Assembly: GCA_018650445.1 (NCBI GenBank)
Contig: JABIFX010000253.1
Span: forward strand, 65,136-129,135
DNA length: 64,000 nt
Source of the DNA: Fidelibacterota bacterium
GTDB lineage: Bacteria > Fidelibacterota > UBA8477 > JABMPR01
Reading direction: 5' to 3'
Part shown: in pieces, positions 22,269 to 48,577 of the stretch
Numbering within the stretch: the stretch's first letter is position 1
Layout of the letters: every line of letters begins with the position of its first letter
The notes under the pieces: generated by a model
Databases searched by the model: none
What the model was told of the DNA's origin: nothing
Seen by the model: the letters and a program-made list of their open reading frames with translations, nothing else
Translations under genes and position numbers: made by a program

Positions 22269-23672
22269 CTATCTAATAAGCGGCCACCAAACCAGACCCA
22301 CCAGAGCTAGAGAAATGATTGACATAATCGCCATCTTCCAACCGGCGCGCAGAAAGTCAGGCGCCTTGACCAGACCACTGGAATAAATGATGGTACAAGC
22401 CGGAGCCGCGACAGCAGTGAAATAACCAAAGGCTGAAGATATTACTGAAGCCAGACCCAGGAGGATGGGATCACCACCCAGATTAAGAACAACAGGCCCC
22501 ACTACAGCTACGGTTGCTGAACTGCTCAGTAGATTTGATAAAACCCCACTCAATGCTACGGAGACAACGGCACGCAGTGTATCAATATTGGGGATCAAAA
22601 TCTGAAGAAAATTGACACTGCCCTCTGCCAGCCAGGCGGCTCCACCAGTATTTTTCATCTGGACACCAATGGAAATGGTCGCCCCAAACAATAGAATCAC
22701 TCCCCAGTTAACCCCTCTGCTAAGATCCTTCCATGAAACCAGCCCAAAGGTTAAATAGAGGAAAATGCCCATGAGTGCGATACTCCCTAATCCATAAACC
22801 TCGCTTAATGCAATCCAACCATATAGAACTGCTGCAAACAGAACGAGAGAGAAGCTTTCCTTCCAGGACATCTTACCAGCATGAGCCACTTCTACAGAAA
22901 GTCGTCGAACTGCAGTGTCCAATACCTTCAATTCAGGTGGGAAGGTTTTTAATATGATGAAGCTGGTAATAGGAATCTCAATCAGTACCATGGGATAAAC
23001 CATTTTCATCCATTCGATATAACTCAGGCTGCCGGATCCAAATTCAGCCCAATAATTCATCATAATCACATTGCGCCCACCTCCACTGGGTGTTCCAATG
23101 GAGCCAATGGTTGCCCCATAGGCAATGGAAAAGAGTAAAGCAGCAATAAGTCCTGTGTTTGACTGCCCTCTATTAGAAGTATATCGAATCAGGGTCAGGG
23201 CGACAGGCAGCATCATTGCTGTCACCATATGGGGACCAACAAAGCTTGAAAGAATTGCGGAGATGGCGGTAAAACCAGCCACAATACGCCAGGTTTTATT
23301 GCCGGTAAGACGGATGATCCCCAGAGCGAGGCGTTTATCCAGGCCCTGACTCACGATAGCTACAGCCAACATAAGTGATCCCATGATAAAGAAAACCGCA
23401 TCATTCATAAAATAGCCGCCAACCTCATTGGGTGTGCTGCCCCCGATGATGACCTGCCAGAATATCAACTGTAGGGCAATGGCTGGAAGGGGTATGGGTT
23501 CTTTCAGAATGAGTATGAGGGTCATCAAAATGATGATGAGAATGTGATAACCGTCCTTACCAAGAGATTGTGGATGTGGAACAAAAAAATAAAGGATGGC
23601 TCCAATTACCAATGCAATCAGGAGCCAGCGTTTTTGCTGGATCCAAAATAGCATGTCGGCAGAGATATGCAT
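22269..23672 (-). CDS. anion permease of the ion-transporter superfamily (DASS/SLC13-ArsB-like), paralogue 1
   Basis: 467 aa with many TM segments. Conserved blocks are 'FMNDAVFFIMGSLMLAVAIVSQGLDKRLALGII', 'GSIGTPSGGGRNVIMMNYW' and 'LSSSATVAVVGP'. This is a family-level call by eye only. Confidence 0.6.
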   Translation of the reverse strand: MHISADMLFWIQQKRWLLIALVIGAILYFFVPHPQSLGKDGYHILIIILMTLILILKEPIPLPAIALQLIFWQVIIGGSTPNEVGGYFMNDAVFFIMGSLMLAVAIVSQGLDKRLALGIIRLTGNKTWRIVAGFTAISAILSSFVGPHMVTAMMLPVALTLIRYTSNRGQSNTGLIAALLFSIAYGATIGSIGTPSGGGRNVIMMNYWAEFGSGSLSYIEWMKMVYPMVLIEIPITSFIILKTFPPELKVLDTAVRRLSVEVAHAGKMSWKESFSLVLFAAVLYGWIALSEVYGLGSIALMGIFLYLTFGLVSWKDLSRGVNWGVILLFGATISIGVQMKNTGGAAWLAEGSVNFLQILIPNIDTLRAVVSVALSGVLSNLLSSSATVAVVGPVVLNLGGDPILLGLASVISSAFGYFTAVAAPACTIIYSSGLVKAPDFLRAGWKMAIMSIISLALVGLVWWPLIR

Positions 23673-23685
23673 TGGAGAGGTCTGG

Positions 23686-24606
23686 CTATCGGACGATCAG
23701 AATCGGGACATCAGTTTGTTCTAGGGTCTTGATTGGCTTGCTTCCAAACAGAAATTGCTTCACAGGATTCAAGGTTGAGGCACCCATGATGACGAAGTGA
23801 TTGTCTCCGGCGAACTCAACAAAGGTTCTCACGGGGTCTCCAGTGAGAAAAAATTGCTCAACTTCAATACCTCTGGAATCAAAGTATGCTTTTGCCTTAT
23901 CTGCGGCACCCTGATACCCCGCTCCAAACCGCTTGGTTTTGGAAACAGTAAGCGTTCTTACGGGCCATCCCAATTTCCCCGCAATCAAAGCCCCCCATTC
24001 AATGGACTTGCTTGTAGCCGTTGAATCATCCACCAGGAGTAAGAGTTTATATTTCTTGCGAGGATTAAATTTTTGAAGTACAAAAATGGAGGAGGGTAGA
24101 TACTGGAGAATGGAGTGTGCTAAATGGCGTTTGTTCTGACTCCCACCAATAATGGCAAGATCGTAACCCTCCAGTTGTATTTCCTTCCTCAACTGATCAA
24201 CCAACTCACCCTCCCGAAGGACAAGCTCGATACGGCAGCCTTTATCATCAGGTAAAATGACCCGGACACGACCATCTTCTTCATAGACATGATCCGAATT
24301 GAATTGAATTTTTGCCAACTCTTCATTATCGGAGGATAGTTTTTTTAGCTCCTGCAAAGCCCACTCCAGCACTTCCAGACCAGGATGTATGATATTCCAA
24401 TTATCCAGATTCTGACGGGTCAGATTGACAGAACTACCATGAAATTCACTGGCTCTTTCACCGACATAAACCACACCATGACTGGCATCGAAAACAGAGG
24501 CAATGAGTGCGCCCATCTTCAAAGTGGGCTTAGAATATTCAACACTACTTACCGCAGTGAGAAACTTGAGAGATTTTGGGTCGAATGGAGCTTTCTTCTT
24601 TGTCAT
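23686..24606 (-). CDS. tandem universal stress protein (USP) domain protein
   Basis: The track ORF starts at 24621. I prefer ATG 24606, which overlaps the upstream stop as ATGA. It has two USP-like halves, and the C-terminus 'HFVIMGASTLNPVKQFLFGSKPIKTLEQTDVPILIVR' resembles the USP nucleotide-binding end. Confidence 0.65.
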   Translation of the reverse strand: MTKKKAPFDPKSLKFLTAVSSVEYSKPTLKMGALIASVFDASHGVVYVGERASEFHGSSVNLTRQNLDNWNIIHPGLEVLEWALQELKKLSSDNEELAKIQFNSDHVYEEDGRVRVILPDDKGCRIELVLREGELVDQLRKEIQLEGYDLAIIGGSQNKRHLAHSILQYLPSSIFVLQKFNPRKKYKLLLLVDDSTATSKSIEWGALIAGKLGWPVRTLTVSKTKRFGAGYQGAADKAKAYFDSRGIEVEQFFLTGDPVRTFVEFAGDNHFVIMGASTLNPVKQFLFGSKPIKTLEQTDVPILIVR

Positions 24607-26003
24607 AATAGTGGCCACCATAATAAGGATAATCCAAGCAGGCTAACAAGGGATAAAACACCCATTTTCCAACCGGCTCTGAGAAAGTCTTTTGATTTTA
24701 CCAGCCCGCTGGAATAGATAATGGTACAAGCAGGAGCTGCTACCGCTGTGAAATAACCAAATGCAGAGGCTATTGCAGTGGCGAATCCGATGAGAATTTG
24801 ATCCCCCCCCAGGTCCAGTACAATAGGACCCACAACAGCTACAGTCGCAGAGCTACTTAAAATATTTGACATGACACCGGAGAGAAGCACGGAAACACTT
24901 CCCTGGAGAATTGCAGGACTATCGATAACCTTACCTAGATTGGTTATGATTACATGGGCTATCCATTCAGCAGCACCGGTTTGGTTCATCTGAATACCGA
25001 TTGAAATGGCAGCACCAAAAAGGAGAATGACCCCCCAGTTGGTTTTACGGTTGAGTTCTTGCCATTCAACCAATCCAAATGACAGATACAGGAAAACACC
25101 GAGGAGAGCGATAATCCCCAACCCAAAATCCTCACTGAGAAAGACCCAGCCGAGAAACACCAGGATAAAAAGAATAATTGCCAGCCATTCGCGACCCTTG
25201 ATCCTGCCTGCTCGTGCCACATCGACAACCAGTTTACGTACAGCGCTATCCAGATTGCTCTGTTCCGGTTTAAAGGTCCAGAGTAGAATGAAAACTGTAA
25301 AGGGTATTTGAAACAAGACCATGGGGTAGACATATTTGATCCATTCCAGGTAAGTCACAGATCCAGATCCAAATTCAGCCCAGTAATTCATCATGATAAC
25401 ATTGCGACCACCTCCAGAGGGAGTACCAATGGATCCAATAGTTGCGCCATAAGCAATTGAAAAGAGTAGGGCAGCAGTCAGCCCTGCCACTTTTCTGGGA
25501 TCCTTATGGGCATATCTGACAAGTGTTAGCCCCACCGGCATCATCATAGCGGCGACCGTATGCTCGCCAATAAACGAGGCCAGGATAGCTGAGATCGCAG
25601 TGAATCCTGCAACAATCCGCCAGGTTTTATGCCCTGTTAACGTGATAATCCCCAGGGCCAATCGTTTATCCAGCCCCTGACTCACAATGGCTACTGCCAA
25701 CATGAGCGATCCCATGATAAAGAATACGGCATCATTCATAAACGATGAGGCCACATTATTGGCTGTATCTATCCCCAGGACCACCTGCATAAACAGCATA
25801 AACATAGCTATTGCAGGAAGCGGCAAGGGTTCAGTAACAATGAGGATCAACGCCATTGAGATGATTATAAGAGCATCAAAAGCGGCTGGATTTAGATCAG
25901 GCGGGGGCGTCACGCTATGATGCATGAGCAAGCCGTACACCAGAGCAATCAGCAGCCATTTTTTCTGGCGTATCCAAAACAGGATATCAATATATGAATT
26001 CAC
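24603..26003 (-). CDS. anion permease of the ion-transporter superfamily (DASS/SLC13-ArsB-like), paralogue 2
   Basis: 466 aa, colinear with 22269..23672, with long identical blocks (e.g. 'FMNDAVFFIMGSLMLAVAIVSQGLDKRLALGII', 'LLFSIAYGATIGSIGTPSGGGRNVIMMNYWAEFGSGS', 'AFGYFTAVAAPACTIIYSSGLVK'). Confidence 0.6.
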   Translation of the reverse strand: MNSYIDILFWIRQKKWLLIALVYGLLMHHSVTPPPDLNPAAFDALIIISMALILIVTEPLPLPAIAMFMLFMQVVLGIDTANNVASSFMNDAVFFIMGSLMLAVAIVSQGLDKRLALGIITLTGHKTWRIVAGFTAISAILASFIGEHTVAAMMMPVGLTLVRYAHKDPRKVAGLTAALLFSIAYGATIGSIGTPSGGGRNVIMMNYWAEFGSGSVTYLEWIKYVYPMVLFQIPFTVFILLWTFKPEQSNLDSAVRKLVVDVARAGRIKGREWLAIILFILVFLGWVFLSEDFGLGIIALLGVFLYLSFGLVEWQELNRKTNWGVILLFGAAISIGIQMNQTGAAEWIAHVIITNLGKVIDSPAILQGSVSVLLSGVMSNILSSSATVAVVGPIVLDLGGDQILIGFATAIASAFGYFTAVAAPACTIIYSSGLVKSKDFLRAGWKMGVLSLVSLLGLSLLWWPLL

Positions 26004-26099: not shown

Positions 26100-28958
26100 T
26101 CAACCCTTTTTCTTTTCGAGATAAAAGAGCTCTTTGCTGGGGGCCAGTGGACGCGCCATCCACAATGGTCTTCTTAAACCATCCGGATGTGTTTCACGTT
26201 CTTTCGCCCATCCGTTCCATTTTTTGAAGTGAGCAAATGACTTCTCAGTATCTACAAAGACATCCCCATATTTCTCACCCTCTTTTGGTTTGGAAATAGC
26301 CACCTTCTGGAGCCAACAATGGGCACCGGATACTGGGTCAGGTTGTACAGCATGAGTGATGTTCTGATGAACACCTCCATCCCGCCACCATACCCTCTGA
26401 GTATCAGGATCGCTGGTTTTCCACGGTTCCACACCTCTAGTGGTTTCCATGCGCCACTTGCCTTCACCTTCATTGCTGATGTTTACCGTATTGGTCATAA
26501 ACTTATTGCCTTGATCCTGTTTACGGCGCCAGCGTCCAATGTGGTGTGAACACGCCACAACACTGGGCTTGATAGCCTCAGTGACCCAGACCTTATCCAC
26601 AAACCAGCCAATCTCTGTTTCGATTTTCAGAAGCTCGCCTGTTTTCACACCCAGCTTGTCAGCATCCAGCGTGTTGATCCAGATGGGATTCCTGTGGGCG
26701 ATTTCTGTCAACCATTTTGCATTGGCGGAACGAGAATGGATATGGGTTGGTAATCTGAAATTTGGTAAAAGCACACATTCGTGACGGCTTTCATCCATAT
26801 GATCCCGATGGACATGGGATTTGATATAACCAGGAATAGCTTGATCAGGATAACCAAAATCAGCTGTAGTTTGAGAATAGAATTCCTGCTTCTTTGAAGG
26901 TGTGGGGAACCCACTGTATTTGACGCCCTTCTCTTCTACTCCAACGATCTCGCCATCCTTGAAAACACTACCATTATCATTGACGGTCGTATTCGCACTG
27001 GCTGCGGCTGACATTTCAGTCTTATTTTTCTCATATAAACTGGGCACCACGTTAAAGGCACCATACTTGCGCATATAATCGAGTGCTGTGAGACCTTCCT
27101 TGGCGGCAGTTTCCTTAAGACCATCAGTGTGCTCAAAGATGTATTGGTAGTATTCATCGATAGTTATTTTTTCACCATCACGATAGGGACTTATGAAGTG
27201 TTTGCGAATCCCCAGGTCATCATCCTTATCAATCCGCCAGGATAATTCAATCCAGAATTCATCTTCTTCCCAAACTTCACCGGGATTCACTTCATAGGTA
27301 AATTTGACTTCCTTGCCATCACGGCGTGCTTTTTCTCTAAGCACGGGTTGACGGAAGGCGATCCACATTCCTGAATGGGTTTCATATGAATTGATATCAT
27401 GACGCTCAGGTCCATGACCCATGGGAAGGACATAATCGGCAAAGAAGGCCGTTTCATTCCAGGTGGGTGTAAGCGCAATGTGGCAGCCTACAGAGTCATG
27501 GTTGCTCAGCATCTCAATCCATGAAAAACCATCGGGATAGGTCCATACCGGATTAAAAACCCGGGTGAAGTAGACATCCATTGATCCACGACCATCTTTG
27601 ATCAGATGGGGTAAAATCTGACTCATTTCAAAATGATTCAGGGTGTATTCCTTTGGAAAATGGAGTTCGTTCCAAACCGGAGGTCCTGGGGGTACATCAA
27701 AGAATTCGGGGTGAAATTTATTCCACGCACTGGGTGAGGTTCCACCTGGGGTCCCCACCGAACCGGTCAAGACATTCAAGAAATGCAGTGTTCGAGCGAC
27801 TTGCCAGCCACCGAGATTACCAATTGAAGCACCTCGCCAAACATGGGTTGAAAGCTGGGACCCGGCATCAGCTATAACATGAGCTACTTCGATAATCTGC
27901 TCTGCTTCAATACCTGCTTCCTGTGCGGCATATTCCGGTGTGAATTCAGCATAAGCTTCAATAGTTTTTTCGATAAAGTTTTCAAAGGTCACTTCAGAAT
28001 CGGGATGTTCAGCTTTGAGATATTCATCCCAATTGACCCAGGTTTCAATATACTCTCTGTCGTAAAGACCTTCTTCAAGAATGATCTTTGCTATTGCTAG
28101 AAATACTGCGGCTTCAGAACCGGGATAGGTTGGCATCCAATAGTCAGCGTGGGAGGCGGTATTTGAGAGACGGGGGTCCATAACAATAAGTTTGGCACCC
28201 TTCATCTTGCCTTCCATAATGCGCTGAGCATGGGGATTAAAATAATGACCGGTTTCCAGATGAGAGCTGGCCAGGAGAATCACCTTGGCATTGGTATGAT
28301 CTGGTGAAGGTCGATCATATTTATGCCACATGGCATATCCGGCGCGGGCTCCAGCTGAACAAATATTGGTATGGGAGTTGTGGCCATCCACACCCCAGGC
28401 TTTTAGCACACGTTCCATGTAGCCCTCATGACCAGGACGACCGACGTGATAGACCACTTTGTCACGGCGATTAGCTCTCAATGATTTTTGGATTTTTGCC
28501 CCAATTTCATCCAGAGCCTGATCCCAGGTAATCTGTTCCCAGTCTCCAGCACCACGCTCTCCCACTCGCTTGAGGGGATATAGAATCCGCTCGGTGTCTT
28601 TGACCTGATTAATGGTGGCTGGACCTTTGGCGCAATTTCTTCCACGTGAGCCTGGATGATGAGGATTTCCTTCAAATTTGCGGATTTTATCATCGTCTTT
28701 GTCAATATACGCCAGTAAGCCACAAGCGGATTCACAGTTAAAGCAGGTTGTGGGTACGATGCTATAGCGACGTTCCTTTTTCACCGGCCAGGCTTGGGGG
28801 TCCAGCTCCACAAAATTATCCCACTCTTCTGGCTTAGGATATTTATAGAGGGGACGCGGTCCCTCCAGGGCATACGCTTCAGAAGCATCTTCATGATGCG
28901 AAATTTTCGGGATGACACCAATACCTTCAGCAAGCTTTTCTATAAATGATCGTTTCAT
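26100..28958 (-). CDS. Mo/W-bis-PGD (DMSO reductase family) catalytic subunit without canonical Tat signal; SoeA-like candidate sulfite dehydrogenase
   Basis: 952 aa. The N-terminal FeS motif 'CFNCESACGLL...GRNCAKG' is preceded by a ~70-aa extension. The N-terminus 'MKRSFIEKLAEGIGVIP' has KR rather than RR and no hydrophobic h-region. The family call is firm. The SoeA assignment rests on context and remembered similarity. Confidence 0.75.
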   Translation of the reverse strand: MKRSFIEKLAEGIGVIPKISHHEDASEAYALEGPRPLYKYPKPEEWDNFVELDPQAWPVKKERRYSIVPTTCFNCESACGLLAYIDKDDDKIRKFEGNPHHPGSRGRNCAKGPATINQVKDTERILYPLKRVGERGAGDWEQITWDQALDEIGAKIQKSLRANRRDKVVYHVGRPGHEGYMERVLKAWGVDGHNSHTNICSAGARAGYAMWHKYDRPSPDHTNAKVILLASSHLETGHYFNPHAQRIMEGKMKGAKLIVMDPRLSNTASHADYWMPTYPGSEAAVFLAIAKIILEEGLYDREYIETWVNWDEYLKAEHPDSEVTFENFIEKTIEAYAEFTPEYAAQEAGIEAEQIIEVAHVIADAGSQLSTHVWRGASIGNLGGWQVARTLHFLNVLTGSVGTPGGTSPSAWNKFHPEFFDVPPGPPVWNELHFPKEYTLNHFEMSQILPHLIKDGRGSMDVYFTRVFNPVWTYPDGFSWIEMLSNHDSVGCHIALTPTWNETAFFADYVLPMGHGPERHDINSYETHSGMWIAFRQPVLREKARRDGKEVKFTYEVNPGEVWEEDEFWIELSWRIDKDDDLGIRKHFISPYRDGEKITIDEYYQYIFEHTDGLKETAAKEGLTALDYMRKYGAFNVVPSLYEKNKTEMSAAASANTTVNDNGSVFKDGEIVGVEEKGVKYSGFPTPSKKQEFYSQTTADFGYPDQAIPGYIKSHVHRDHMDESRHECVLLPNFRLPTHIHSRSANAKWLTEIAHRNPIWINTLDADKLGVKTGELLKIETEIGWFVDKVWVTEAIKPSVVACSHHIGRWRRKQDQGNKFMTNTVNISNEGEGKWRMETTRGVEPWKTSDPDTQRVWWRDGGVHQNITHAVQPDPVSGAHCWLQKVAISKPKEGEKYGDVFVDTEKSFAHFKKWNGWAKERETHPDGLRRPLWMARPLAPSKELFYLEKKKG

Positions 28959-38798: not shown

Positions 38799-39020
38799 TT
38801 AAGTCTGTGAGGAGGACTCTTCTTTCTTGGCGGTACTAAGTTTGAGGGGCCAGTACAGTGGGCAAAAGCTCATGAAGCTGGTAAGCAGAAAAATAACTGC
38901 TACAGCGCCTAAAACGATAGCTGCCGTTCCACTGATTTGATCCATGAAATATAACACTCCAATTAATACTGCCAGAGTTGCCCGAATCGCTCGATCGATT
39001 GAACCCATATTTGTTGGCAT
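38799..39020 (-). CDS. DUF2892-family small membrane protein (YgaP C-terminal-domain-like)
   Basis: 73 aa. 'MGSIDRAIRATLAVLIGVLYF' and '...FCPLYWPL' are typical of DUF2892. Two TM helices. Confidence 0.65.
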   Translation of the reverse strand: MPTNMGSIDRAIRATLAVLIGVLYFMDQISGTAAIVLGAVAVIFLLTSFMSFCPLYWPLKLSTAKKEESSSQT

Positions 39021-40121: not shown

Positions 40122-40867
40122 CAGGCCACCCCCTTATCTTTCAATACGGCCATTAAGGCTTCAACATCATCCAGCATTTTAGCTCCCAAACCCTTTTCAG
40201 GTGCGGCCATACTGCTAATGGCACTTCCAGCTCCAGCCCCTAAATCACCGGCATCCATTTCCTGGATGGTTTCAGTTTGTTGGATTTGTCTCACTTTACT
40301 CACTGGAGCATAGCGAGGTGCTTGAGCCGCAGCTTGAATCCCCAACACTGCAGGAAGATCTACTTCAAACTCGCCCAACATACCGCCAGAGTATTCCTTC
40401 TGTACTGTAGCCTGTCCACCAGAGACGCTAACACCAGCCACGACACTGATGCAGGGGACTGATAGATATTCAGCCATAATGGGTCCCAAATGACCATCGC
40501 GACCATCAGCAGATTGCACTCCTGCCATAACCAGATCAAAACCCTCTGTGGCAACAGCATTGGCAAATGCTTTGGCTAATTGATGTATATCTGTGGGGCT
40601 GCTACCGTTTAATTTGATCGCCTTGTTTGCACCTTTGGCAATGGCAGTAAATAACATTTTGTCGACATCTTCCCCGTCAAAAGCCATTGCAACCACCTCG
40701 TCAGCCGCACCACTCTCTTTTAAGAGCAGCGCTTCCTCGAGTGCTTGATCGTCAAATTCATTTAATTTTAACTTGACCTCTTCAGCATCCAGAGCTTTTC
40801 CAGTGGCATCCACCTCCAGGTCTTCTACCAGGTCTGGTACTTGTTTTAAAGGCACGACGATCTTCAT
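40121..40867 (-). CDS. etfB: electron transfer flavoprotein, beta subunit
   Basis: 248 aa. 'MKIVVPLKQVPDLVEDLEVD' and 'DLVMAGVQSADGRDGHLGPIMAEYL' are typical of EtfB. GGAG SD upstream. Confidence 0.9.
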   Translation of the reverse strand: MKIVVPLKQVPDLVEDLEVDATGKALDAEEVKLKLNEFDDQALEEALLLKESGAADEVVAMAFDGEDVDKMLFTAIAKGANKAIKLNGSSPTDIHQLAKAFANAVATEGFDLVMAGVQSADGRDGHLGPIMAEYLSVPCISVVAGVSVSGGQATVQKEYSGGMLGEFEVDLPAVLGIQAAAQAPRYAPVSKVRQIQQTETIQEMDAGDLGAGAGSAISSMAAPEKGLGAKMLDDVEALMAVLKDKGVA

Positions 40868-40881: not shown

Positions 40882-41112
40882 TTACTTCATACGCTGGATA
40901 AAAAAGTTTCTCGTATCACCAGCTTCTTCTATATCTAATAATTTCTGTCCGGACGACCTGCACCAGGCGTTGATATCAGGGACTGATCAGGGGTGAGCAC
41001 TACTCAACTGAAGAACGCCCCCGATAGGGAGATTCCTCAAAGCCTGCCAGGATCGAATCACTGGCATACCCATTCCACAAGGTCCCGTATCAATGTGCAA
41101 ATCTACTTTCAT
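40882..41112 (-). CDS. TusA/SirA-fold small protein (76 codons) interrupted by one in-frame TGA at codon 42 (plus-strand 40987..40989): candidate selenoprotein or recent pseudogene
   Basis: Found by hand; it is below the ORF-track size cutoff. The ATG at 41112 overlaps the upstream stop (TGATG). Translation is MKVDLHIDTGPCGMGMPVIRSWQALRNLPIGGVLQLSSAHP-TGA-SVPDINAWCRSSGQKLLDIEEAGDTRNFFIQRMK-TAA. This aligns without gaps to the TusA at 47408..47644 (ELDCKGMNCPLPILKTKKQIDTMGSGEVLKMIATDPGSINDMTSWTKRTGNELL...YVFFIKKT). The natural stop lies 14 nt before the etfB ATG. Confidence 0.55.
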
Positions 41113-42410
41113 CAGGCAGTGTCTTCGCCTTCACTCATGCAATAATCAAGAATTTCAATGATATCCATGACCAGTAGCTTACCATCATTATTTGTAGATT
41201 TAACAGCATCTTCAAAACGTGAGACTTCATAGGGGCAGCAGACAGCTAATATCTCAGCACCTACTTCCACAGCTTCCTTGACCCGGTTTTCCGATAGACG
41301 TTCAGCAGAGTTATCCGCCATGAGTCCATCCAACCACATGCCTCCACCACCTCCACCGCAGCAATAGGCTTGTTCTTTGTTTCGATACATTTCCATATAT
41401 TCGATCTCAGGGACGGCATTCAAAAGAGTGCGCGGGGCATTGTATTCGCCATTATGACGACCTAAATAGCAGGGATCATGAAAAGTAACCTTCTTGGGGA
41501 AGGGCCGTTTCATCAGCTTGGCTAAATCATCAACCCGTTCTTCCAGGAGTTGGGTATAGTGCTGTAAATTGTATTCTTTTCCGGTAACAGCAGGGTAGAA
41601 ATTCTTAAAAGCATTGTAAGCATGGGGATCACTGACGACCAATTTGTTATGTTCATATTTATCAAACTGGATTCCATTATGTTCTGCCAATTCTTCAAAT
41701 AAACCGGATTCACCCACCAGACGCTGAGAATCACCATCACATTTTTCTTCTTTTCCCAGGATGCCAAAATCAATCCCCAAACGATTAAACACTCGTACAG
41801 TTGCTTTGGCGGCATCATTTCCACGATTGTGGTAGGAGAAGTAATCACTGACGTACCATAAAACATCTACTGGCTCTGGGTCCGTTTCTTTTGACAAATC
41901 GCGAACGGGTTCTTCAAATTTGCGTAGCCATCCCACTCGTTTACGGGCTGATTCGCCCATAGGATTGCCATATTCAGCAACATTCTGCAACATGTCCTGT
42001 ATTTCACCAGGAACATTGCCATTCAATACTGCCTGTTCTCTGGCTGCAGGGATAATCTGAATCATATCGACTTCTTTTGGACAAACACGAAGACAATTTG
42101 AACAAGTCGTGCACAGCCATAAATCATCATGATCGAAAAAATCCATACCGGTCTGAAGCTTTCGAAAAATTTTGCGTGGTCCATAGCTACCTACATTATC
42201 GACAGGACAAACCCCAATGCATTGGGCACATTGATAGCAGGCATTGATGGATTTAGCACCGGGTAACTCACGTAATTTTTCGAGACCGTCAATATCATAG
42301 GTCAGGATCTCACGGGGTTCATACATCTTGTTCCACTCACCGGATAGATCAACCCCATCTACTACGACATTGTCTTTCTGGACAAATTTTTCATATTTAT
42401 GTTCAGACAT
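41112..42410 (-). CDS. soluble HdrD-like Fe-S protein (2x[4Fe-4S] + 2 CCG domains; HdrC/HdrB fusion type, 'sHdrB3'-like)
   Basis: 432 aa with 'CYQCAQCIGVCP', 'CTTCSNCLRVCP', 'FHDPCYLGRHNG' and 'YCCGGGGG'. It is clearly paralogous to the C-terminal two thirds of 36625..38676. Confidence 0.8.
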   Translation of the reverse strand: MSEHKYEKFVQKDNVVVDGVDLSGEWNKMYEPREILTYDIDGLEKLRELPGAKSINACYQCAQCIGVCPVDNVGSYGPRKIFRKLQTGMDFFDHDDLWLCTTCSNCLRVCPKEVDMIQIIPAAREQAVLNGNVPGEIQDMLQNVAEYGNPMGESARKRVGWLRKFEEPVRDLSKETDPEPVDVLWYVSDYFSYHNRGNDAAKATVRVFNRLGIDFGILGKEEKCDGDSQRLVGESGLFEELAEHNGIQFDKYEHNKLVVSDPHAYNAFKNFYPAVTGKEYNLQHYTQLLEERVDDLAKLMKRPFPKKVTFHDPCYLGRHNGEYNAPRTLLNAVPEIEYMEMYRNKEQAYCCGGGGGGMWLDGLMADNSAERLSENRVKEAVEVGAEILAVCCPYEVSRFEDAVKSTNNDGKLLVMDIIEILDYCMSEGEDTA

Positions 42411-42412: not shown

Positions 42413-43168
42413 TTAATTCATCTCCATACTTTTTACCCCAAGAATCTGCTGGGTCAACTCAGTCAGCTCAGGTAATATCCGATTAAATTCTTGGGAAAGT
42501 TTCACGCGAAAAACTGTATACATGTAGACAGCATACACACAGGCAAAAAAGATATCTGTTCCGAATAATCCTGCTCCAGCACTGGAAAAACCAACTCGGT
42601 GCCCTACAGCATTCACCAGCGCGGTGGTTTGTCCTATCTTGACATACAGCTCCCCTGGAGTCTTGGCTTCAAGATCAATATCGTCTTGTAGAACCAGAGA
42701 TAATGCTCCGGTATGTTTCTTGAAATCCCAGATCCAGTTTGTCCAAAGCCAATATTTTTGCGGATTAGAGAAGTGCAATAATTCGCAAATTAGATTGAAG
42801 CGCATCGTATCGTTCATCATTTCCAGTGCCTGACTGGCTTGATTAAATCTGACATCCAGGGCTTCATCGCCGTAGAGTAAAGTTGCCAATGTTTCTCTCA
42901 GGGATTCAATTTCTATCGCCTTCAAGATTTTATTCGCTTTCCGCTTAATGGAAAAAATAGAAGCAATGAGCTGCTTGAATTCATCCGCAGTCAGTTCTGC
43001 AATGTGCTCTTCAGACAACAGCTCTGAAAACAATCTGGCTTTATTCTCCAGGCGTTGCCCGATATCTTCCAGATCAGTGGAAGTTGCCAATTTGGTCGCT
43101 TCTTTCATAAACTCCAAAGCGGCTTCAGAGTCTACAACATCTGCAATATTTACTTTATCGTAGAGCAT
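42413..43168 (-). CDS. hypothetical protein at the 'hyp' position of shdr clusters
   Basis: 251 aa with no motif I recognise. It sits between the HdrA-like and HdrD-like genes (gaps of 0 and 2 nt). Confidence 0.5.
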   Translation of the reverse strand: MLYDKVNIADVVDSEAALEFMKEATKLATSTDLEDIGQRLENKARLFSELLSEEHIAELTADEFKQLIASIFSIKRKANKILKAIEIESLRETLATLLYGDEALDVRFNQASQALEMMNDTMRFNLICELLHFSNPQKYWLWTNWIWDFKKHTGALSLVLQDDIDLEAKTPGELYVKIGQTTALVNAVGHRVGFSSAGAGLFGTDIFFACVYAVYMYTVFRVKLSQEFNRILPELTELTQQILGVKSMEMN

Positions 43169-44236
43169 TTAGGCTGGTTGTAACTCAGATTTTCTTATAA
43201 AACTACAGGCCTTCATCACGGCTGAGCCACCCATGGAAACAGAATCTTCCAAATCAGCTGGACCGGCGGCCGCACCAACAACAAAAACACCAGGGACCGT
43301 GGTTTCAACTGTATTCAAAGCTCCACCAGTAGTTTCTATATAGCCATGTGGTTCGAGGGGTAGCTCGAAGGTATCAGCCATTTCTACGGTTCCATCACTG
43401 GGCTCCATGCCTACTGATAGAATAACTACATCCATGGCAACTTCCATGGGACGACCCATGGTGGTATCTTCACCCTTTACAACCAGCGTGTCACCTCGTT
43501 TTGTTACTTCGGTAACAATACCACGGATAAAATTCACATTATAGTCTTCCTGGGCTTTCCAATAAATTTCATCTTCCCAGAAGCCGTAGGTACGCATATC
43601 GATATAAAAGACAAAAACGCGTGCATCTGGAGCGGCTTCTTTGACTTCAATGGCTTGCTTACAAGCAATGCCGCAGCAGACCTTGGAACACCACTGATTT
43701 CCTATCTGACGATCTCTACTTCCAACACATTGGATAAAACAGACGGTTTTGGGGGCTTCTCCAGTTGACGGTCGGGCAAACTCATCTGCCTTGAGCATTT
43801 TCTCAGCATCCACCAGAGTGATCACATCTTCAAACTCATAGTAACCATACATCTGGGTTTCTTTGCCTGGATCAAAATGTTTGAAGCCTGTGGCAACGAT
43901 GACGCTACCCACTTCTAGAATTTCTTCACCTCCGGCATTTTTCACAGTCACTTCCATATTGGGCGCATCACCCTTGGAACCGACAACCGTGGTACTCAAA
44001 CGAATATCTATAGATGGATTGTCCGTAATAGCAACAATCATCTCACCCATGGCCTCTTCCGGACTGCGCATATCCGGGGTCAAAGCAGCATAGTCGGCTG
44101 AAATAGGCATTCCGCCCAGAAAATCGGCCTTTTCAATCAAAATAGCCTGATACCCGAGATCAGCGATCCCACGCACAGCCTCTAAACCGGCAGGTCCACC
44201 ACCGATAACTAATATTGGTTTACTTGACATCTGCAT
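43169..44236 (-). CDS. hdrA: short HdrA-like FAD/[4Fe-4S] flavoprotein (sHdrA-type)
   Basis: 355 aa with 'ILVIGGGPAGLEA' and 'CFIQCVGSRDRQIGNQWCSKVCCGIAC' (four-Cys cluster motif). It lacks the ferredoxin and MvhD-binding domains of methanogen HdrA. Confidence 0.85.
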   Translation of the reverse strand: MQMSSKPILVIGGGPAGLEAVRGIADLGYQAILIEKADFLGGMPISADYAALTPDMRSPEEAMGEMIVAITDNPSIDIRLSTTVVGSKGDAPNMEVTVKNAGGEEILEVGSVIVATGFKHFDPGKETQMYGYYEFEDVITLVDAEKMLKADEFARPSTGEAPKTVCFIQCVGSRDRQIGNQWCSKVCCGIACKQAIEVKEAAPDARVFVFYIDMRTYGFWEDEIYWKAQEDYNVNFIRGIVTEVTKRGDTLVVKGEDTTMGRPMEVAMDVVILSVGMEPSDGTVEMADTFELPLEPHGYIETTGGALNTVETTVPGVFVVGAAAGPADLEDSVSMGGSAVMKACSFIRKSELQPA

Positions 44237-45428
44237 CCTCCCATGTCATAAAATCCAGTTCTCCACTTTCAATTCTTCCAGCGATGGCTTCAAATTCTCC
44301 CCATGCTTTTTTGTAGTCGATTCCCATCTTTTCCAGCAACGGCTTATTATCAACTCCATGCCAGTGAAGCTGACAAACGTTATACGGATGAGCACCCATG
44401 GCTAAGGCAGCGTACTGTGCATCGGATAGCACAGGAATGCCCACATTTCTACCATGTGCCTTTGCAGCAAATTGGCTTTTATCCAGAGTGGTAACACAAC
44501 CCGTGTCATGGGTCAGGGTCACATCAGGATCCACTTCTTCCTTCATTCGTTCAATTTTTCTAATGGTGGCAAAAGAGCGCGAAAAATCCCTGCTCACCAG
44601 AATATGCCTGAAGCCGAATCCACAGCAATCATGCCAGGTGGAATAATCAGCTGCAGTAGATCCCAGAGCTTCAACCAAGCTGGTTACCACAGCAGTACGT
44701 TGTCCATCATATAATTCGCGGTCATAGATAGCATCCTCTACAACCAGTTTGTGGTAATGACAGGCGGGATGAACTGTGACAGTTAGATCGCTAAAATCCA
44801 GAACCTGTCTTTCTGCAATTCGGTGCCGCATGACATGGATCCATTCAGAGTAATGCACGATCTCTTCTGGGAAGACAAAGGGCATTTTCAATTTGTCCAT
44901 TATGCGACGCACCTGGTCTCTTAGTTCAGGGTGATGTATGATTTCTTCCCGAGTTTCCTTATAATGACCAAAACTGGTTCCACAATGGATCAGGGGGAAA
45001 TATCCATCCTGTTTGGCTTGAGCAAAGTTACGTACAGCTACAGAAGCCTGGGCGGCGGAGTTTGATGTAGAAGAAGCATAGTAATTCCAGGCCGTACAGG
45101 ATGATTGATCCTTGGGATCATAGTAATCCAGACCAAACTGTCTGTGTAGCCAGAAAATGGCTGTTGAATACCCTGGAATATGTCCACACTGTCCGCAGGA
45201 TTTATGATGCCAAGTATGTTCGATGGGTATCTTTTTTTTCCTGCCATATTTGGTCTCTACTTCTTCAAATGGTTCGGGGACTCGGTGTACTTCCAACTCA
45301 CCTTTAGCTTCTAATTCAAAGAGCTTCTCCCGGTAATCTTCCGTAGGTGGTTTGCCCTTACGAACATACTCTCGCATTGGCGACTTTTTCTCGGTATGTA
45401 CTGCCGGTGCTTGGGTTGTCTCTGCCAT
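44220..45428 (-). CDS. hdrB: HdrB-like CCG-domain protein (sHdrB1-type)
   Basis: 402 aa with 'WHDCCGFGFRH', 'HPACHYHK' and 'HDTGCVTT'. It overlaps the hdrA-like start by 17 nt. Confidence 0.8.
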   Translation of the reverse strand: MAETTQAPAVHTEKKSPMREYVRKGKPPTEDYREKLFELEAKGELEVHRVPEPFEEVETKYGRKKKIPIEHTWHHKSCGQCGHIPGYSTAIFWLHRQFGLDYYDPKDQSSCTAWNYYASSTSNSAAQASVAVRNFAQAKQDGYFPLIHCGTSFGHYKETREEIIHHPELRDQVRRIMDKLKMPFVFPEEIVHYSEWIHVMRHRIAERQVLDFSDLTVTVHPACHYHKLVVEDAIYDRELYDGQRTAVVTSLVEALGSTAADYSTWHDCCGFGFRHILVSRDFSRSFATIRKIERMKEEVDPDVTLTHDTGCVTTLDKSQFAAKAHGRNVGIPVLSDAQYAALAMGAHPYNVCQLHWHGVDNKPLLEKMGIDYKKAWGEFEAIAGRIESGELDFMTWEDADVK

Positions 45429-45461: not shown

Positions 45462-46181
45462 TCAATCATCCAGGATATTCTCGAAGTCATCTATATCATA
45501 TCCATTGTCTTCCAGAAGCTCTTCCATCACTTCTTCCAGAATCATATAAATTCCCTCATCAATCCCTTCGATGAGCTCCAGGTTACCGGTCAATTTCCAG
45601 ATCATATAAAGTTCGAGTCTGGTTTTTTCAGAAACATCCCAGGCCAGTTCAGTGGTATGCAGCGTCTCCGGGGGAATGGCTCTACGCCAGACATCCAGAT
45701 TTTCAGCAACTGCTTTTACATCATTACCCCAGTCTGGGAAAAAGTCGGGTTGAAGCATATCAGGGGCTACCTGAGTTCCGGTGGCCATGACTTTGTAGAT
45801 AATGCGACTGTAAGCTTGTAAAGCATCTTTAGCAGATTGCAAACCGCGGCGGACAGCTGCATCGCGCATCATGAGAATAATTCCACCGGGATTATTCTGA
45901 CGGGGGCAACGGGTACACGAGTAACATTGAGAGCAATCCCAGACGCTATCATTTAACAGCTCATAGAAGGTGTCCACATCTTCACGAGCCATGGTCTGGG
46001 CAAAAACGCGGGGACTGAAATCATAAAATCTGGCGGAGGGACATGCGGCAACACAAATTCCGCATTCATAGCAACCGTACAAATTATTTCCATATCGCAT
46101 GTCAGCCTTGACTTCATTGAAGAGTTCTAATTTCTCTTCATAGGGGACATCCATATATTTTGCATCTTTATAAATCGACAT
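45462..46181 (-). CDS. hdrC: HdrC-like 2x[4Fe-4S] ferredoxin subunit (sHdrC1-type)
   Basis: 239 aa with 'CYECGICVAACP' and 'CSQCYSCTRCP'. Confidence 0.8.
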   Translation of the reverse strand: MSIYKDAKYMDVPYEEKLELFNEVKADMRYGNNLYGCYECGICVAACPSARFYDFSPRVFAQTMAREDVDTFYELLNDSVWDCSQCYSCTRCPRQNNPGGIILMMRDAAVRRGLQSAKDALQAYSRIIYKVMATGTQVAPDMLQPDFFPDWGNDVKAVAENLDVWRRAIPPETLHTTELAWDVSEKTRLELYMIWKLTGNLELIEGIDEGIYMILEEVMEELLEDNGYDIDDFENILDD

Positions 46182-46189: not shown

Positions 46190-46465
46190 CTACTTATTTA
46201 GTGCTTTCAATTCTTCGTAAACTTCCTGCAGGAATTCCGCTTTCGGTAAACCAACAATTCTTTTTTGTTCTACATCATCACGGTAAAAAATCAAACTTGG
46301 GATTGTTTTAATTCCAACCTTTTGAGCATGAGCCAATCCTGCCTTATTTTCCAACTTCACTGTCTCCAGTAATAGGTCATCCACCGACTCAGACAGTTTC
46401 CAGCCTAATTCAACAGCTGGGCCACATCCAGAACAGGCGGGATGAGTGAATATGCGCAGGGTCAT
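46190..46465 (-). CDS. small thioredoxin/glutaredoxin-fold protein with CxxC
   Basis: Only the last 91 codons of track ORF 46190..46750 are taken, because the 5' part overlaps lbpA2 in another frame. The sequence 'MTLRIFTHPACSGCGPAVE...GIKTIPSLIF' has the CxxC plus cis-Pro pattern of the Trx fold. Confidence 0.6.
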   Translation of the reverse strand: MTLRIFTHPACSGCGPAVELGWKLSESVDDLLLETVKLENKAGLAHAQKVGIKTIPSLIFYRDDVEQKRIVGLPKAEFLQEVYEELKALNK

Positions 46466-46493: not shown

Positions 46494-46955
46494 TTAGCCT
46501 TCAAAGCCTTCGCAATGAATGCACTCGCCCATATCCTTTTCAGCCATATAAGCATCAAATCCAACAATGGCATCTGCTCCGTTGACCAAGGCACTTGCCT
46601 CTTCATCGAAATTGCTGGGGTTGATTTTGACAATCCAGCCAGCTTTATAAGGACTCTTATTAAGGAGTGTACCATCACCTGCAACAGCTTCATTGGCCTC
46701 CATAATCTCACCGGCAAAGGGAGTTTTAACGGGGCCAACCCATTTACCACTTTCTACAGTGGCTACACTTTTTCCCAGCTTGACTGAGCGACCCACTTTT
46801 TTAGGACGACAATGGATAATACTTCCAGCCATGCTTTGGGCGATATCAGTCATCCCCAAATCGACGGTTCCATCATCATTCTTGCGTACCCATACGTTAT
46901 ACTCAACGTGGTACAGAAGATCATCAGGTAACATGCAGTTTTTTAATTCAGCCAT
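46494..46955 (-). CDS. lbpA: GcvH-like lipoate-binding protein (LbpA-type), copy 2, with C-terminal CxxC extension
   Basis: 153 aa. The lipoyl-lysine context is 'VATVESGKWVGPVKTPFAGEI', followed by 'PYKAGWIVKI'. There is an extra C-terminal tail 'DMGECIHCEGFEG'. Confidence 0.8.
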   Translation of the reverse strand: MAELKNCMLPDDLLYHVEYNVWVRKNDDGTVDLGMTDIAQSMAGSIIHCRPKKVGRSVKLGKSVATVESGKWVGPVKTPFAGEIMEANEAVAGDGTLLNKSPYKAGWIVKINPSNFDEEASALVNGADAIVGFDAYMAEKDMGECIHCEGFEG

Positions 46956-46970
46956 ACTCTTCCCCTTCTA

Positions 46971-47345
46971 TTAGTACGTTAAAACCATATCACTTTCGAG
47001 GCCAACATCCGTCATATAGGCAGCTCCAACAACGCCATCACAGGCTTCAGTCAGGTCATCCTCTGTCATATCGTGTAGCTGAAGTGCGGCAGAACAGACA
47101 TACATTTCAACATCAGCATCTTTCGCATCCTGGATGAAATCGGCCACAGATTTACCACCCTCTTTTGCAAACAGCCCTTCAGAAACACCGTGTTTCAGCA
47201 ACAGAATTCCGTCAATCTGGAATATCATTTCTACCTCATTATCCATGGCAGCAGCAACACTGGCCATATAAAATGGAGTTGCACATCGCTGTGGAGTTGC
47301 CGGACCAGAGGTCACGAATATGGTTACTTTTCCTTCGTCAGACAT
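46971..47345 (-). CDS. DsrE/DsrF-family sulfur-relay protein (DsrE3-like)
   Basis: 124 aa with 'VTIFVTSGPATPQRCATPFYMASVAAAMD' and 'MYVCSAAL'. Confidence 0.7.
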   Translation of the reverse strand: MSDEGKVTIFVTSGPATPQRCATPFYMASVAAAMDNEVEMIFQIDGILLLKHGVSEGLFAKEGGKSVADFIQDAKDADVEMYVCSAALQLHDMTEDDLTEACDGVVGAAYMTDVGLESDMVLTY

Positions 47346-47407: not shown

Positions 47408-47644
47408 TTACGTTTTCTTTATAAAAAAAACGTAATCGCCACCATCCTGAGAGTGTGATAGTAGTTCATTACCGGTACGTTTTGTCCATGAAGTCATGTC
47501 ATTAATAGATCCCGGGTCAGTGGCTATCATTTTTAAAACCTCTCCAGAACCCATTGTATCAATCTGTTTCTTGGTTTTCAGGATAGGCAAAGGACAATTC
47601 ATACCTTTGCAGTCAAGTTCTTGGTCATATGCTTGATCGTTCAT
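47408..47644 (-). CDS. tusA: TusA-family sulfur carrier
   Basis: 78 aa. 'LDCKGMNCPLPILKTKK' is the canonical CPxP active site, and '...ATDPGSINDM' follows. Confidence 0.9.
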   Translation of the reverse strand: MNDQAYDQELDCKGMNCPLPILKTKKQIDTMGSGEVLKMIATDPGSINDMTSWTKRTGNELLSHSQDGGDYVFFIKKT

Positions 47645-47668
47645 TTGATTTCCTTTTTTACAAGTGGT

Positions 47669-48184
47669 TTAAACAAACAGAGATATATCAGAGTCAGCTG
47701 CGAACTCTAGAAAAGTTGCCGCTCCACCCAGATCAACACCATCGATGAATTGATCTTTAGTAAACCCAAATACATCCATGGTCATCTGACAACCAATCAG
47801 TTTTACTCCCATTTCTACACAGATATCACGTAATTCCTCTATGCTGGCGACGCCTTTGTTTGCAAAAGTCTTCTTCATAAGCGATGTAGCCATGGTTTCA
47901 AACCCAGGTACGTTTCCAGCGATAACATTTGGAATCGGCCAACTAATATTTTGGAAGCCCTGGGGTCCAAAAGGCATTTTCATAGGCATCGCTGGATTTG
48001 TTTGCGGAGCAACCTTGGCAGAAAGATCTTTTTGAAGTAGTGTCAATCCGTAAAACGTAAAGAAGATTCCTACCTCCATATCCATTGCGGCAGCAGTGGA
48101 GGCCAGGATAAAGGGTGGATATGCCCAATCCAGGGTTCCCTGTGATGCTATAAGAGCTAATCGTTTGGGTTTGGTTTCACTCAT
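47669..48184 (-). CDS. DsrE-related protein (DrsE_2-like, ~170 aa type)
   Basis: 171 aa with 'RLALIASQGTLDWAYPPFILASTAAAMDMEVGIFFTFYGL' and 'LIGCQMTMDVFG'. Confidence 0.65.
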   Translation of the reverse strand: MSETKPKRLALIASQGTLDWAYPPFILASTAAAMDMEVGIFFTFYGLTLLQKDLSAKVAPQTNPAMPMKMPFGPQGFQNISWPIPNVIAGNVPGFETMATSLMKKTFANKGVASIEELRDICVEMGVKLIGCQMTMDVFGFTKDQFIDGVDLGGAATFLEFAADSDISLFV

Positions 48185-48533
48185 GTTTACTCCTTTTTGA
48201 CTCTGGAAATATATCTTTCATCTGCATTTCACCTGTCTCCAGGTCCAGTCTGCAGGAATTCATACATTCCAGAAGTTTGCGGATCATGTCACTGGCTAAT
48301 GAATAATATGTGCTGGTCCCCTCTTTACGTGATGCGAGAATATTGTTGTTTTGCATAAAGCGTAAATGTTGCGAGGTAACGGGCTGGGACAGACCTATTC
48401 CCTGTTGGATTCTACCAACTGTCTGCTCACCAGTCTGGAGCAGTTCAATTATTTTCAGCCGTTCTGGGTGCCCCAAAGCTTTGAGAACTTTTGAGGCCGC
48501 CTCGAAAAACACTATGTTATTTACAGCATTCAT
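48177..48533 (-). CDS. ArsR/SmtB-family transcriptional regulator (sHdrR/SoxR-like position)
   Basis: 118 aa. The winged helix reads 'HPERLKIIELLQTGEQTVGRIQQGIGLSQPVTSQHLRFMQNNNILASRKEGTSTYYSL', and Cys residues occur in 'LLECMNSC'. It is the first gene of the minus-strand cluster. Confidence 0.8.
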   Translation of the reverse strand: MNAVNNIVFFEAASKVLKALGHPERLKIIELLQTGEQTVGRIQQGIGLSQPVTSQHLRFMQNNNILASRKEGTSTYYSLASDMIRKLLECMNSCRLDLETGEMQMKDIFPESKRSKHE

Positions 48534-48553
48534 GATAAAAATTTGGTAACGCT

Positions 48554-48577
48554 TTGGTGATAATATTGGTCACCAAT
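48554..48577. promoter_or_regulatory. candidate operator: nested inverted repeats TTGGTGA-N9-TCACCAA and ATTGGT-C-ACCAAT
   Basis: The site lies 21-44 nt upstream of the ArsR-type gene start, in the 228-nt divergent region shared with acnA. 'ttggt' occurs three times within 48542..48570. Confidence 0.4.

Follow-up and report, generated by a model that had tools for sequence, protein, structure and literature searches.

A probable three-module locus for the cytoplasmic oxidation of sulfane sulfur to sulfate in SAR406 (Marinisomatota)

Does a long run of genes on one strand of a SAR406 (Marinisomatota) contig encode a complete route from protein-bound sulfane sulfur through sulfite to sulfate? 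The question is raised by a stretch of 64,000 nucleotides (nt) from contig JABIFX010000253.1, hereafter the window, to which all coordinates refer. Between 48533 and 22269 it carries 27 genes on the minus strand, comprising 26 long open reading frames (ORFs) and one small TusA-like gene. A sequence-only reading had described this run and suggested such a route for it; the run itself is borne out by the ORF list and the gene table. Our analysis indicates that the block is probably a cytoplasmic sulfur-oxidation locus of SAR406 composed of three modules: a type II sHdr system (48533-36625), a set of genes for the maturation of the lipoate-binding protein LbpA (36647-30611), and a molybdenum (Mo) enzyme accompanied by two DASS anion carriers and a Usp protein (30579-22269). 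Gene identities were obtained from Pfam and NCBIfam profile scans of the window proteins, and these scans recovered every family assignment that had been proposed from the letters of the sequence. Behind a regulator gene, which is treated further below, the first module contains the following genes.

47669..48184, minus strand: DsrE2 sulfur carrier (NF047629, 215.8 bits, equivalog cutoff 210; DrsE_2, 5.6e-50)
47408..47644, minus strand: TusA with the canonical Cys-Pro motif, MNCPLP (PF01206, 5e-25)
46971..47345, minus strand: DsrE3-type sulfurtransferase of 124 amino acids (aa), subtype A/B/C unspecified (DsrE, 1.5e-16)
46494..46955, minus strand: LbpA1, a GcvH-like lipoate-binding protein (GCV_H, 1e-35; VESgK lysine in the alignment; below the cutoffs for true GcvH)
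46190..46465, minus strand: small thioredoxin-like CxxC protein (weak match, 3.5e-4; kept in related clusters)
45462..46181, minus strand: sHdrC1 (Fer4 dicluster; HdrC, 8e-21)
44220..45428, minus strand: sHdrB1 (CCG domain; HdrB model matched over 1-304/304, 7e-35)
43169..44236, minus strand: sHdrA, 355 aa (6TJR, E 9e-88, residues 6-348 on 2-341)
42413..43168, minus strand: sHdrH, the 'hyp' protein of shdr clusters, 251 aa (no family match; same position in all related clusters)
41112..42410, minus strand: sHdrB3, in which an HdrC-like dicluster ferredoxin is fused to an HdrB-like CCG domain (Fer4 at 55-114 plus CCG)
40121..40867, minus strand: EtfB (ETF, 1.4e-21)
39177..40121, minus strand: EtfA (ETF_alpha, 6e-33)
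38799..39020, minus strand: YgaP-like (DUF2892) two-helix membrane protein, lineage-specific (flanked by two of the longest gaps)
36625..38676, minus strand: EMO-like membrane Fe-S/CCG oxidoreductase (Etf:quinone); its Fer4 and CCG domains come after 5 predicted transmembrane helices (role from PMC11094781)

By its alignments the HdrA-like protein is clearly the form of sulfur oxidisers (sHdrA) and not the methanogen type, as had been proposed. Its best solved match is the sHdrA of H. denitrificans (6TJR), which aligns over the full length with an E value of 9e-88, whereas the methanogen HdrA of about 650 aa aligns to residues 104-353 only, at about 1e-58. The genes shdrC1, B1, A, H and B3 together with etfAB are contiguous on the minus strand from 46181 to 39177, which is the arrangement that defines type II sHdr, a class set up in 2024 (shdrC1B1AHB3 and etfAB in one syntenic cluster, with emo; PMC11094781). 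In that source Marinisomatota are among the phyla listed with type I or type II sHdr, type II is described as the less characterised of the two, sHdrB3 figures as a fusion of C2 and B2 that has a single non-cubane site, and EtfAB and EMO are proposed as electron carriers to menaquinone (PMC11094781). In the window, the first CCG half of sHdrB3 retains a single Cys (EKCDGD) and the second half the full set (DPC...CCGGG...CCP), which gives one complete non-cubane cluster site. The EMO-like gene adjoins etfAB, the sole intervening gene being the small ygaP-like one; this gene is missing from related clusters, which have a gap of about 58 nt at that place. Genes similar to it were also seen near the Mo enzyme in two other loci (L004 and L069; L-numbers label the loci used for comparison).

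Judged by gene content, the core of the window is an already known type II sHdr cluster and not a new system. The earlier reading had remembered a variant with a fused HdrB3, etfAB and an Etf:quinone gene as something merely noted in comparative genomics; the variant does exist, but it has been formally defined as type II sHdr (PMC11094781). Compared with the published systems (Sulfobacillus, Chloroflexota, Thermoplasmatota and others; PMC11094781), the window matches in gene set and order, including TusA with a DsrE3-type transferase and LbpA with a dedicated ligase, LipS1 and LipS2. It differs in having DsrE2 at the cluster head, a UGA-containing TusA-like gene between shdrB3 and etfB, a second ligase-like and a third radical-SAM gene in place of LipT, and a PSRLC3/Soe-like Mo enzyme with DASS carriers directly downstream. 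In the proposed route, the DsrE2, TusA, DsrE3-type and UGA-containing TusA-like proteins would hand protein-bound sulfane sulfur to lipoylated LbpA and the sHdrC1B1A-H-B3 complex, which would oxidise it to sulfite; the electrons would leave through EtfAB and the membrane-bound EMO-like protein to quinone.

The second module would serve the maturation of LbpA and consists of six genes.

36213..36647, minus strand: LbpA2 (GCV_H, 5.6e-29)
35089..36216, minus strand: sLpl(AB)-type lipoate-protein ligase (LplA-B_cat, 2e-41)
34107..35102, minus strand: LipS1 lipoyl synthase (NF053742, 240 bits, cutoff 230)
32858..33952, minus strand: LipS2 lipoyl synthase (best match NF053743, 197 bits, under the cutoff of 270)
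31789..32835, minus strand: second LplA/LipB-like ligase or transferase (LplA-B_cat, 1.3e-28)
30611..31723, minus strand: third radical-SAM protein, its C-terminus rich in Cys (many related clusters have it at 60-77% identity)

The start of LbpA2 at 36647 corrects the one given earlier. Both LbpA1 and LbpA2 retain the lipoyl-Lys, according to reading of the sequences and the alignment, and no LipT-like flavoprotein was found among the lipoate genes of the cluster. The second ligase-like gene (31789-32835) is kept in many related clusters at 27-70% identity.

The third module starts with the two genes of the Mo enzyme, whose catalytic subunit is of the molybdenum bis-pyranopterin guanine dinucleotide (Mo-bisPGD) type.

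28969..30579, minus strand: fused four-cluster ferredoxin and NrfD anchor ('PsrBC'/SoeBC-like), 536 aa (Fer4_11, 3.5e-23; NrfD, 6.9e-15)
26100..28958, minus strand: Mo-bisPGD catalytic subunit, 952 aa, signal-less, with a Cys Mo ligand (profile and structure-database matches)
24603..26003, minus strand: DASS anion carrier 1 (TIGR00785, 225 bits, cutoff 199)
23686..24621, minus strand: Usp-domain protein with tandem Usp (profile match)
22269..23672, minus strand: DASS anion carrier 2 (67% identical to carrier 1; paralogues)

On which side of the membrane does this enzyme work? The Mo subunit has no hydrophobic segment, no N-terminal twin-arginine (Tat/RR) motif and no Sec signal. In its FeS-NrfD partner the first Cys cluster starts at residue 11 and the hydrophobic NrfD-type domain occupies residues 278-525, no hydrophobic stretch being present ahead of residue 278. 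Since the two parts are fused, the Fe-S domain and the N-terminus of NrfD lie on one side of the membrane, and since an export signal is absent, that side is the cytoplasm. Read from these features, the Mo enzyme is cytoplasm-facing, as had first been suggested, in the same inverted membrane orientation that the literature proposes for SoeC. The enzyme would turn sulfite into sulfate on the cytoplasmic side and reduce quinone, so that the route as a whole would have two quinone-reducing exits, one through Etf/EMO and one through the Mo enzyme. DASS carriers are frequently importers or exchangers. The pair in the window, which accompanies the Mo enzyme even in loci without sHdr, probably moves an anionic substrate or product together with the Usp protein; the direction, or an exchange, is not readable from the sequence. 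The DASS-Usp-DASS triad (22269-26003 in the window, 12955-16689 in L001) stands downstream of the Mo enzyme in SAR406 with or without sHdr.

The Mo enzyme itself is not new either. A SAR406 fosmid enzyme described in 2013 has a psrBC fusion upstream of psrA and no TAT signal, and its closest relatives are found in marine group II (MGII) archaea and in those green sulfur bacteria with the fused form (Wright et al., PMC3906813). The window shares with this SAR406/MGA 'psrBC-psrA' and with PSRLC3, the fused form of green sulfur bacteria, the fusion, the BC-A gene order and the missing TAT signal, with the former also the phylum, and it has its closest relatives in SAR406 and MGII; its Mo subunit is 96% identical to that of the Saanich Inlet Neomarinimicrobiota metagenome-assembled genome (MAG) SI036_bin79. 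The window enzyme and the published SAR406 psrBC-psrA/PSRLC3 enzymes are almost certainly one family. What differs is the setting: the published SAR406 fosmids have pentose-phosphate and molybdenum cofactor (Moco) genes nearby and were read as encoding a polysulfide reductase, whereas in the window the enzyme lies inside a sulfane-sulfur oxidation locus. A review of 2020 leaves the function of the SAR406 Psr-like enzyme open (PMC8359478), and PSRLC3 is inferred to oxidise sulfite by Frigaard & Bryant 2008, insofar as that work is cited in PMC9324843. Homologues of the enzyme carry only generic labels in IMG and NCBI. In the alignment, the Mo-ligand Cys of the catalytic subunit corresponds to those of ArrA and PsrA.

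By its architecture the enzyme can be likened to SoeABC of Allochromatium vinosum and Aquifex aeolicus: Mo-bisPGD subunit, four-cluster ferredoxin and NrfD are combined, the catalytic subunit has about 950 aa, the orientation is cytoplasmic without Tat, and a place downstream of a sulfite-forming system fits. The window differs from SoeABC in the fusion of the B and C subunits and in the gene order BC-A. From the periplasmic Psr, Phs and Ttr enzymes it differs in that its Mo subunit lacks Tat export and scores below the curated family cutoffs.

Which genes accompany this enzyme elsewhere? In 80 genome loci seeded with the Mo subunit, the FeS-NrfD/Mo pair recurs at 63-96% identity in SAR406, Poseidoniales-type archaea, Saprospiraceae and other Bacteroidota, KSB1 and others. 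The closest relatives (L001-L003) have an aconitase on one flank and an amidase on the other, as in the window, and between them ArsR, TusA, DsrE2, the TusA-like UGA gene, a rhodanese-MBL protein, FeS-NrfD, Mo and DASS-Usp-DASS. The rhodanese-MBL gene encodes 385 aa with a rhodanese and a metallo-beta-lactamase (MBL) fold, resembling persulfide dioxygenase (PDO), and it occupies the place where the window has some 17 kb of sHdr and lipoate genes. We had considered this ORF of L001 as a diverged third radical-SAM gene and rejected that assignment. Across phyla such a PDO-like gene is the commonest neighbour; in 29 of the 80 loci the Mo enzyme has one shortly upstream (for example L001 7120-8277, L002 7128-8249, L020 7406-8530, L079 6878-8299 and L083 5292-6437). 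In Flavilitoribacter nigricans, an MBL protein with two rhodanese domains directly precedes the FeS-NrfD/Mo pair, and on Rhodococcus jostii pRHL3 the order DsrE-TusA-FeS/NrfD-Mo lies beside three MBL-fold genes, ArsR regulators and a thioredoxin. PDO and sHdr each yield sulfite from sulfane sulfur (PMC12345210). The window resembles the PDO-rhodanese loci of heterotrophs (CstB/Blh-type) in that L001-L003, Rhodococcus and Bacteroidota carry a rhodanese-MBL gene upstream of the same Mo enzyme where the window has its sHdr block; it differs from them in having no PDO-like gene and in a sHdr route that would be independent of oxygen and conserve the electrons.

The converse comparison started from the sHdr side: an EMO alignment served as seed for 80 metagenome contigs, and all window proteins were used to score them. 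The FeS-NrfD/Mo enzyme lies downstream in 22 of these 80, and a PDO-like gene is found in none (0/80). The full order from ArsR to Mo recurs at 63-94% identity (e.g. L091, L095). There are short forms in which emo leads straight into FeS-NrfD-Mo(-DASS-Usp) (L105, L113, L128, L132), and distant forms with an EMO about 50% identical and the order emo-LbpA-LbpA-ligase-FeS/NrfD-Mo (L145, L148, L150, L155, L156). An archaeal MAG labelled Methanobacteriota (L028, 1-12727) carries shdrC1B1AHB3-etfBA-emo-FeS/NrfD-Mo in tight array, with emo overlapping the start of FeS-NrfD; its Mo subunit falls among Poseidoniales MAG sequences and its Hdr proteins are 70-80% identical to those of SAR406, a similarity that suggests a recent transfer between domains. 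The junction of lipoate genes and Mo enzyme is also present in KSB1 (L074) and in a distant SAR406 (L029). No description of the joint sHdr and Mo-enzyme arrangement was found in the searchable literature. The sequence-only reading, which likewise had not seen the arrangement described as a unit, was largely right on function; it overstated the novelty of the sHdr core and of the Mo enzyme, both of which are published (the latter in PMC3906813). The new elements are the recurrent coupling of sHdr and Mo enzyme, the alternative of PDO-like gene and sHdr at one locus, and the hidden UGA gene.

Do the 27 genes form one transcription unit? The largest true gaps measure 156 nt (etfA to the ygaP-like gene), 154 nt (lipS1 to lipS2), 122 nt and 96 nt, and all others are overlaps or at most 65 nt. 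Two of the longest are explained by the ygaP-like gene (38799-39020) that separates etfA from emo. A space of 244 nt from the sHdrB3 gene to etfB had been counted earlier as the longest gap, ahead of those of 156 and 154 nt; the gene table has the same values, and the space is filled by the TusA-like gene. Of the overlaps reported earlier, those at 48177-48184, 44220-44236, 41112, 40121 and 36213-36216 stand, whereas those at 35089-35102 and 24603-24621 hinge on the choice of start codon. Terminator-like hairpins are not enriched over shuffled sequence, and between genes there is none on the minus strand, in line with the earlier remark that no obvious internal terminators were visible. A single strong promoter-like site was found, at the cluster head, where it is the top-scoring one of the region.

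48575..48602, minus strand: promoter-like site TTGACA, 16-nt spacer, TATATT, with an extended TG before the -10 (11/12 matches; 42 nt upstream of the ArsR ATG)
48563..48579, no strand assigned: perfect 8-1-8 palindrome ATATTGGTcACCAATAT over the -10 hexamer, a candidate operator at which the ArsR-type regulator may act (sole exact copy in the window)
48177..48533, minus strand: ArsR/SmtB-family regulator, 118 aa (HTH_5, 1.5e-9; NF033788, 81 bits, cutoff 55)

In our proposal the ArsR-type protein would act as repressor of the first module, its gene following the promoter and palindrome at the head; the palindrome is not repeated inside the cluster. The same-strand run goes on past the 27 genes to 19106, through two unrelated genes, one for a penicillin amidase (19779-22136) and one AlgH-like (19106-19684), so that the strand run as described earlier holds for the 27 genes and does not end with them. 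Co-directionality by itself is weak evidence for a unit. The block is more than chance because a near-identical gene order recurs in many independent contigs, which is also the outcome of the synteny comparison that had been suggested at the outset. One transcription unit for all 27 genes is plausible but unproven.

What does the Mo enzyme oxidise? It is most simply a sulfite:quinone oxidoreductase, because it follows either PDO or sHdr, both sulfite-forming, faces the cytoplasm and has a quinone-binding anchor; it probably oxidises sulfite. Several points weigh against this. The nearest solved relatives of the Mo subunit are ArrA (E 6e-37) and PsrA (1.4e-33). NCBIfam holds no SoeA model and the PDB no SoeA structure; a tblastn search of plasmid records gave as homologues only PSRLC3-like ones (Natrinema, Thermomicrobium, Rhodococcus; 52-55% identity), and the Mo enzymes of Azoarcus, Caballeronia and Ruegeria from that search were discarded as SoeA references, being unrelated. 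The Mo subunit is placed by architecture and literature only, its membership in the SoeA clade is unproven, and reviewers state that the function of this group of Mo enzymes is not readable from sequence (PMC8359478). The PDO-like protein of SAR406 and MGII has HxQxDY and not the HxHxDH metal motif, which makes its dioxygenase activity uncertain. PDO-rhodanese fusions (CstB) can give thiosulfate instead of free sulfite. Neither partner, sHdr nor PDO-like, is present in 32 of the Mo loci. The enzyme might then be a polysulfide, thiosulfate or sulfur oxidoreductase whose substrate is sulfane sulfur or thiosulfate, perhaps bound to TusA or DsrE2, and not sulfite, and which feeds or drains sHdr in another way, e.g. 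by splitting imported thiosulfate. Besides the solved relatives and the thiosulfate-forming fusions, such a role would agree with the best curated matches (PhsA, 1.4e-56, and TtrB for the Fe-S part), with the DsrE2 and TusA genes immediately preceding the Mo enzyme in relatives, and with the Psr function that the literature proposes for SAR406. We nevertheless consider it unlikely. The scores lie far under the NCBIfam cutoffs (PhsA 192 bits against 694, TtrA 100 against 1750, TtrB 175 against 416 for the Fe-S part, and the Dms models likewise far below), and the recurrent neighbours are two different sulfite-producing systems. The catalytic subunit of Phs lies on the outer side of the membrane. 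The literature places those of Psr, Ttr and Sre on the outer (P) side as well, whereas the window enzyme has no Tat signal and is predicted to be cytoplasmic, and for the PSRLC3 relatives sulfite oxidation is the inferred activity, as far as the citation in PMC9324843 goes. What the sequence-only reading had named as fatal to itself, a methanogen-type HdrA or a Mo subunit of the periplasmic kind, is largely not what we see: HdrA is of the sHdrA type, an export signal is absent and the PhsA cutoff is far away, but ArrA and PsrA remain its closest solved relatives.

A different objection concerns the coupling of the modules. The 27 genes might be three independent head-to-tail units, their adjacency a sulfur 'island' and neither a coupled pathway nor one transcript. 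The modules do occur apart, since most Mo loci have no sHdr and 10 EMO-seeded contigs with at least 9 kb of downstream flank have no Mo enzyme, L116, L120 and L124 have the lipoate block turned round or in another order, and the gaps of 96-156 nt, which could hold internal promoters, count against a single unit too. Yet the same junction is found in SAR406, in the Poseidoniales-like archaeal MAG and in KSB1, with overlaps or a spacing of 10-31 nt, no terminator-like site lies between the modules, and the one strong promoter-like site is at the cluster head; we regard independence as improbable, more so than a different substrate for the Mo enzyme. Least credible of all is that the Hdr-like, Etf and EMO proteins belong to a Flx/Hdr-type or acyl-CoA-linked electron transfer and not to sulfur oxidation. 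EtfAB and EMO are familiar chiefly from the metabolism of fatty acids and from syntrophy, and the best NCBIfam names for the Hdr-like proteins are those of methanogen Hdr subunits, but such a role is hard to reconcile with the sHdrA-type identity of the HdrA-like protein, with the presence of the obligatory partners LbpA, LipS1/S2, TusA and DsrE, and with the fit to the published type II definition (PMC11094781).

The small gene between shdrB3 and etfB needs separate treatment. It had been found by hand and is present, with the correction that it contains an in-frame TGA.

40882..41112, minus strand: TusA-like gene of 76 codons, candidate selenoprotein (in-frame TGA at 40987-40989; its ATG overlaps the sHdrB3 stop)

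The product has the TusA fold signature (PF01206, 1.5e-10). Its best NCBIfam match is YedF, far below the cutoff, and no NCBIfam model covers the family. Compared with the TusA and YedF carriers, the active-site Cys of the CPxP motif of TusA is replaced (GMGMPV), and the UGA follows 'SHP' at a site where ordinary TusA has Gly. Is the gene simply interrupted? At least 15 orthologues, the most distant at 48% identity, keep the TGA after an invariant SHP (e.g. L001 6873-7100, L088 8060-8287, L109 8017-8226), and the final stop codon is common to all of them. Substitutions among orthologues number 503/274/1024 by codon position upstream of the TGA and 400/233/683 downstream, the third position dominating on both sides. 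A genome-wide reassignment of TGA is ruled out, as TGA is the ordinary stop of 13 of 29 genes. One full-length homologue has Cys (TGC) at the site (P0125, L166 3469-3762, in an HTH-TusA-DsrE2-TusA-like context, HTH denoting helix-turn-helix), another has TGG (Trp), and in a third a TGA was translated as Trp by a code-4 gene call. About 20 nt past the UGA lies an invariant CCUG-GUG-CAGG hairpin, at a spacing compatible with the selenocysteine insertion sequence (SECIS) elements of bacteria; its cells are paired in 79% of cases against 20-38% in slid controls, with weak covariation (a single compensatory change). Minimum free energy z-scores were not significant against shuffled sequence, RNAalifold on 11 sequences gave no solid consensus, the region has no Rfam match, and no tRNA gene was found in the window. 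SAR406 single-cell genomes are listed in the literature with an 'orphan' SelD. The gene is probably an unannotated selenoprotein gene, with selenocysteine as the likeliest reading of the UGA codon. When the first 41 residues were used as query in an exhaustive search, most of the ORFs returned were cut exactly at the TGA codon; the homologue with Cys came from this search, since a word-indexed one with a Cys-substituted query returned only a cut-off fragment of 41 aa. Public gene calls cut the gene at 41 aa or render the UGA as Trp, and one component of these clusters is in this way systematically shortened by gene callers.

Tentatively, and with somewhat less than even confidence, the comparison may be carried further. 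A conserved cytoplasmic sulfite:quinone oxidoreductase might be the common back end to interchangeable front ends at the same locus in SAR406, MGII, KSB1 and marine Bacteroidota, either a PDO-like protein, which would be oxygen-dependent, or type II sHdr with LbpA, which would be oxygen-independent and energy-conserving; the SAR406 'polysulfide reductase' would then complete the oxidation of sulfur to sulfate, and the relay would include a TusA-fold selenoprotein. SAR406 are among the most abundant uncultured bacterial groups of oxygen-poor ocean water, and their role in the 'cryptic' sulfur cycle so far rests on the Psr-like enzyme whose function PMC8359478 leaves open. Sulfite oxidation is the economical reading of it because the enzyme stands directly behind either of two sulfite-generating systems. 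If true, SAR406 and MGII archaea with this cassette would have to be seen as oxidising sulfane sulfur completely and no longer as putative sulfur reducers, and the PDO-like and sHdr versions at one locus would be a marker usable against oxygen gradients in existing metagenomes.

Some smaller observations concern the regulator and the cluster ends. Persulfide-sensing relatives of ArsR have one of their two Cys in the N-terminal half. The regulator of the window (48177-48533) has only two Cys, close together near the C-terminus (ECMNSC), and none in the N-terminal half; its sensing chemistry may differ from that of these relatives. At the head, DsrE2 precedes TusA in the window (47408-48184), while the order is the reverse in L001-L003 (L001 6082-6851) and in most sHdr-bearing contigs; this swap is a local rearrangement at the cluster head. 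Protein identity between the window and L001 falls from 96-97% (MoA, DASS) to 65-70% (TusA, ArsR), and the two are different species. A sharp recombination breakpoint between them was considered and rejected, since blastn gave 76-88% identity throughout. Between DASS2 and the amidase, L001 carries an additional DAO-family FAD oxidoreductase (16878-17996) where the window has 132 nt.

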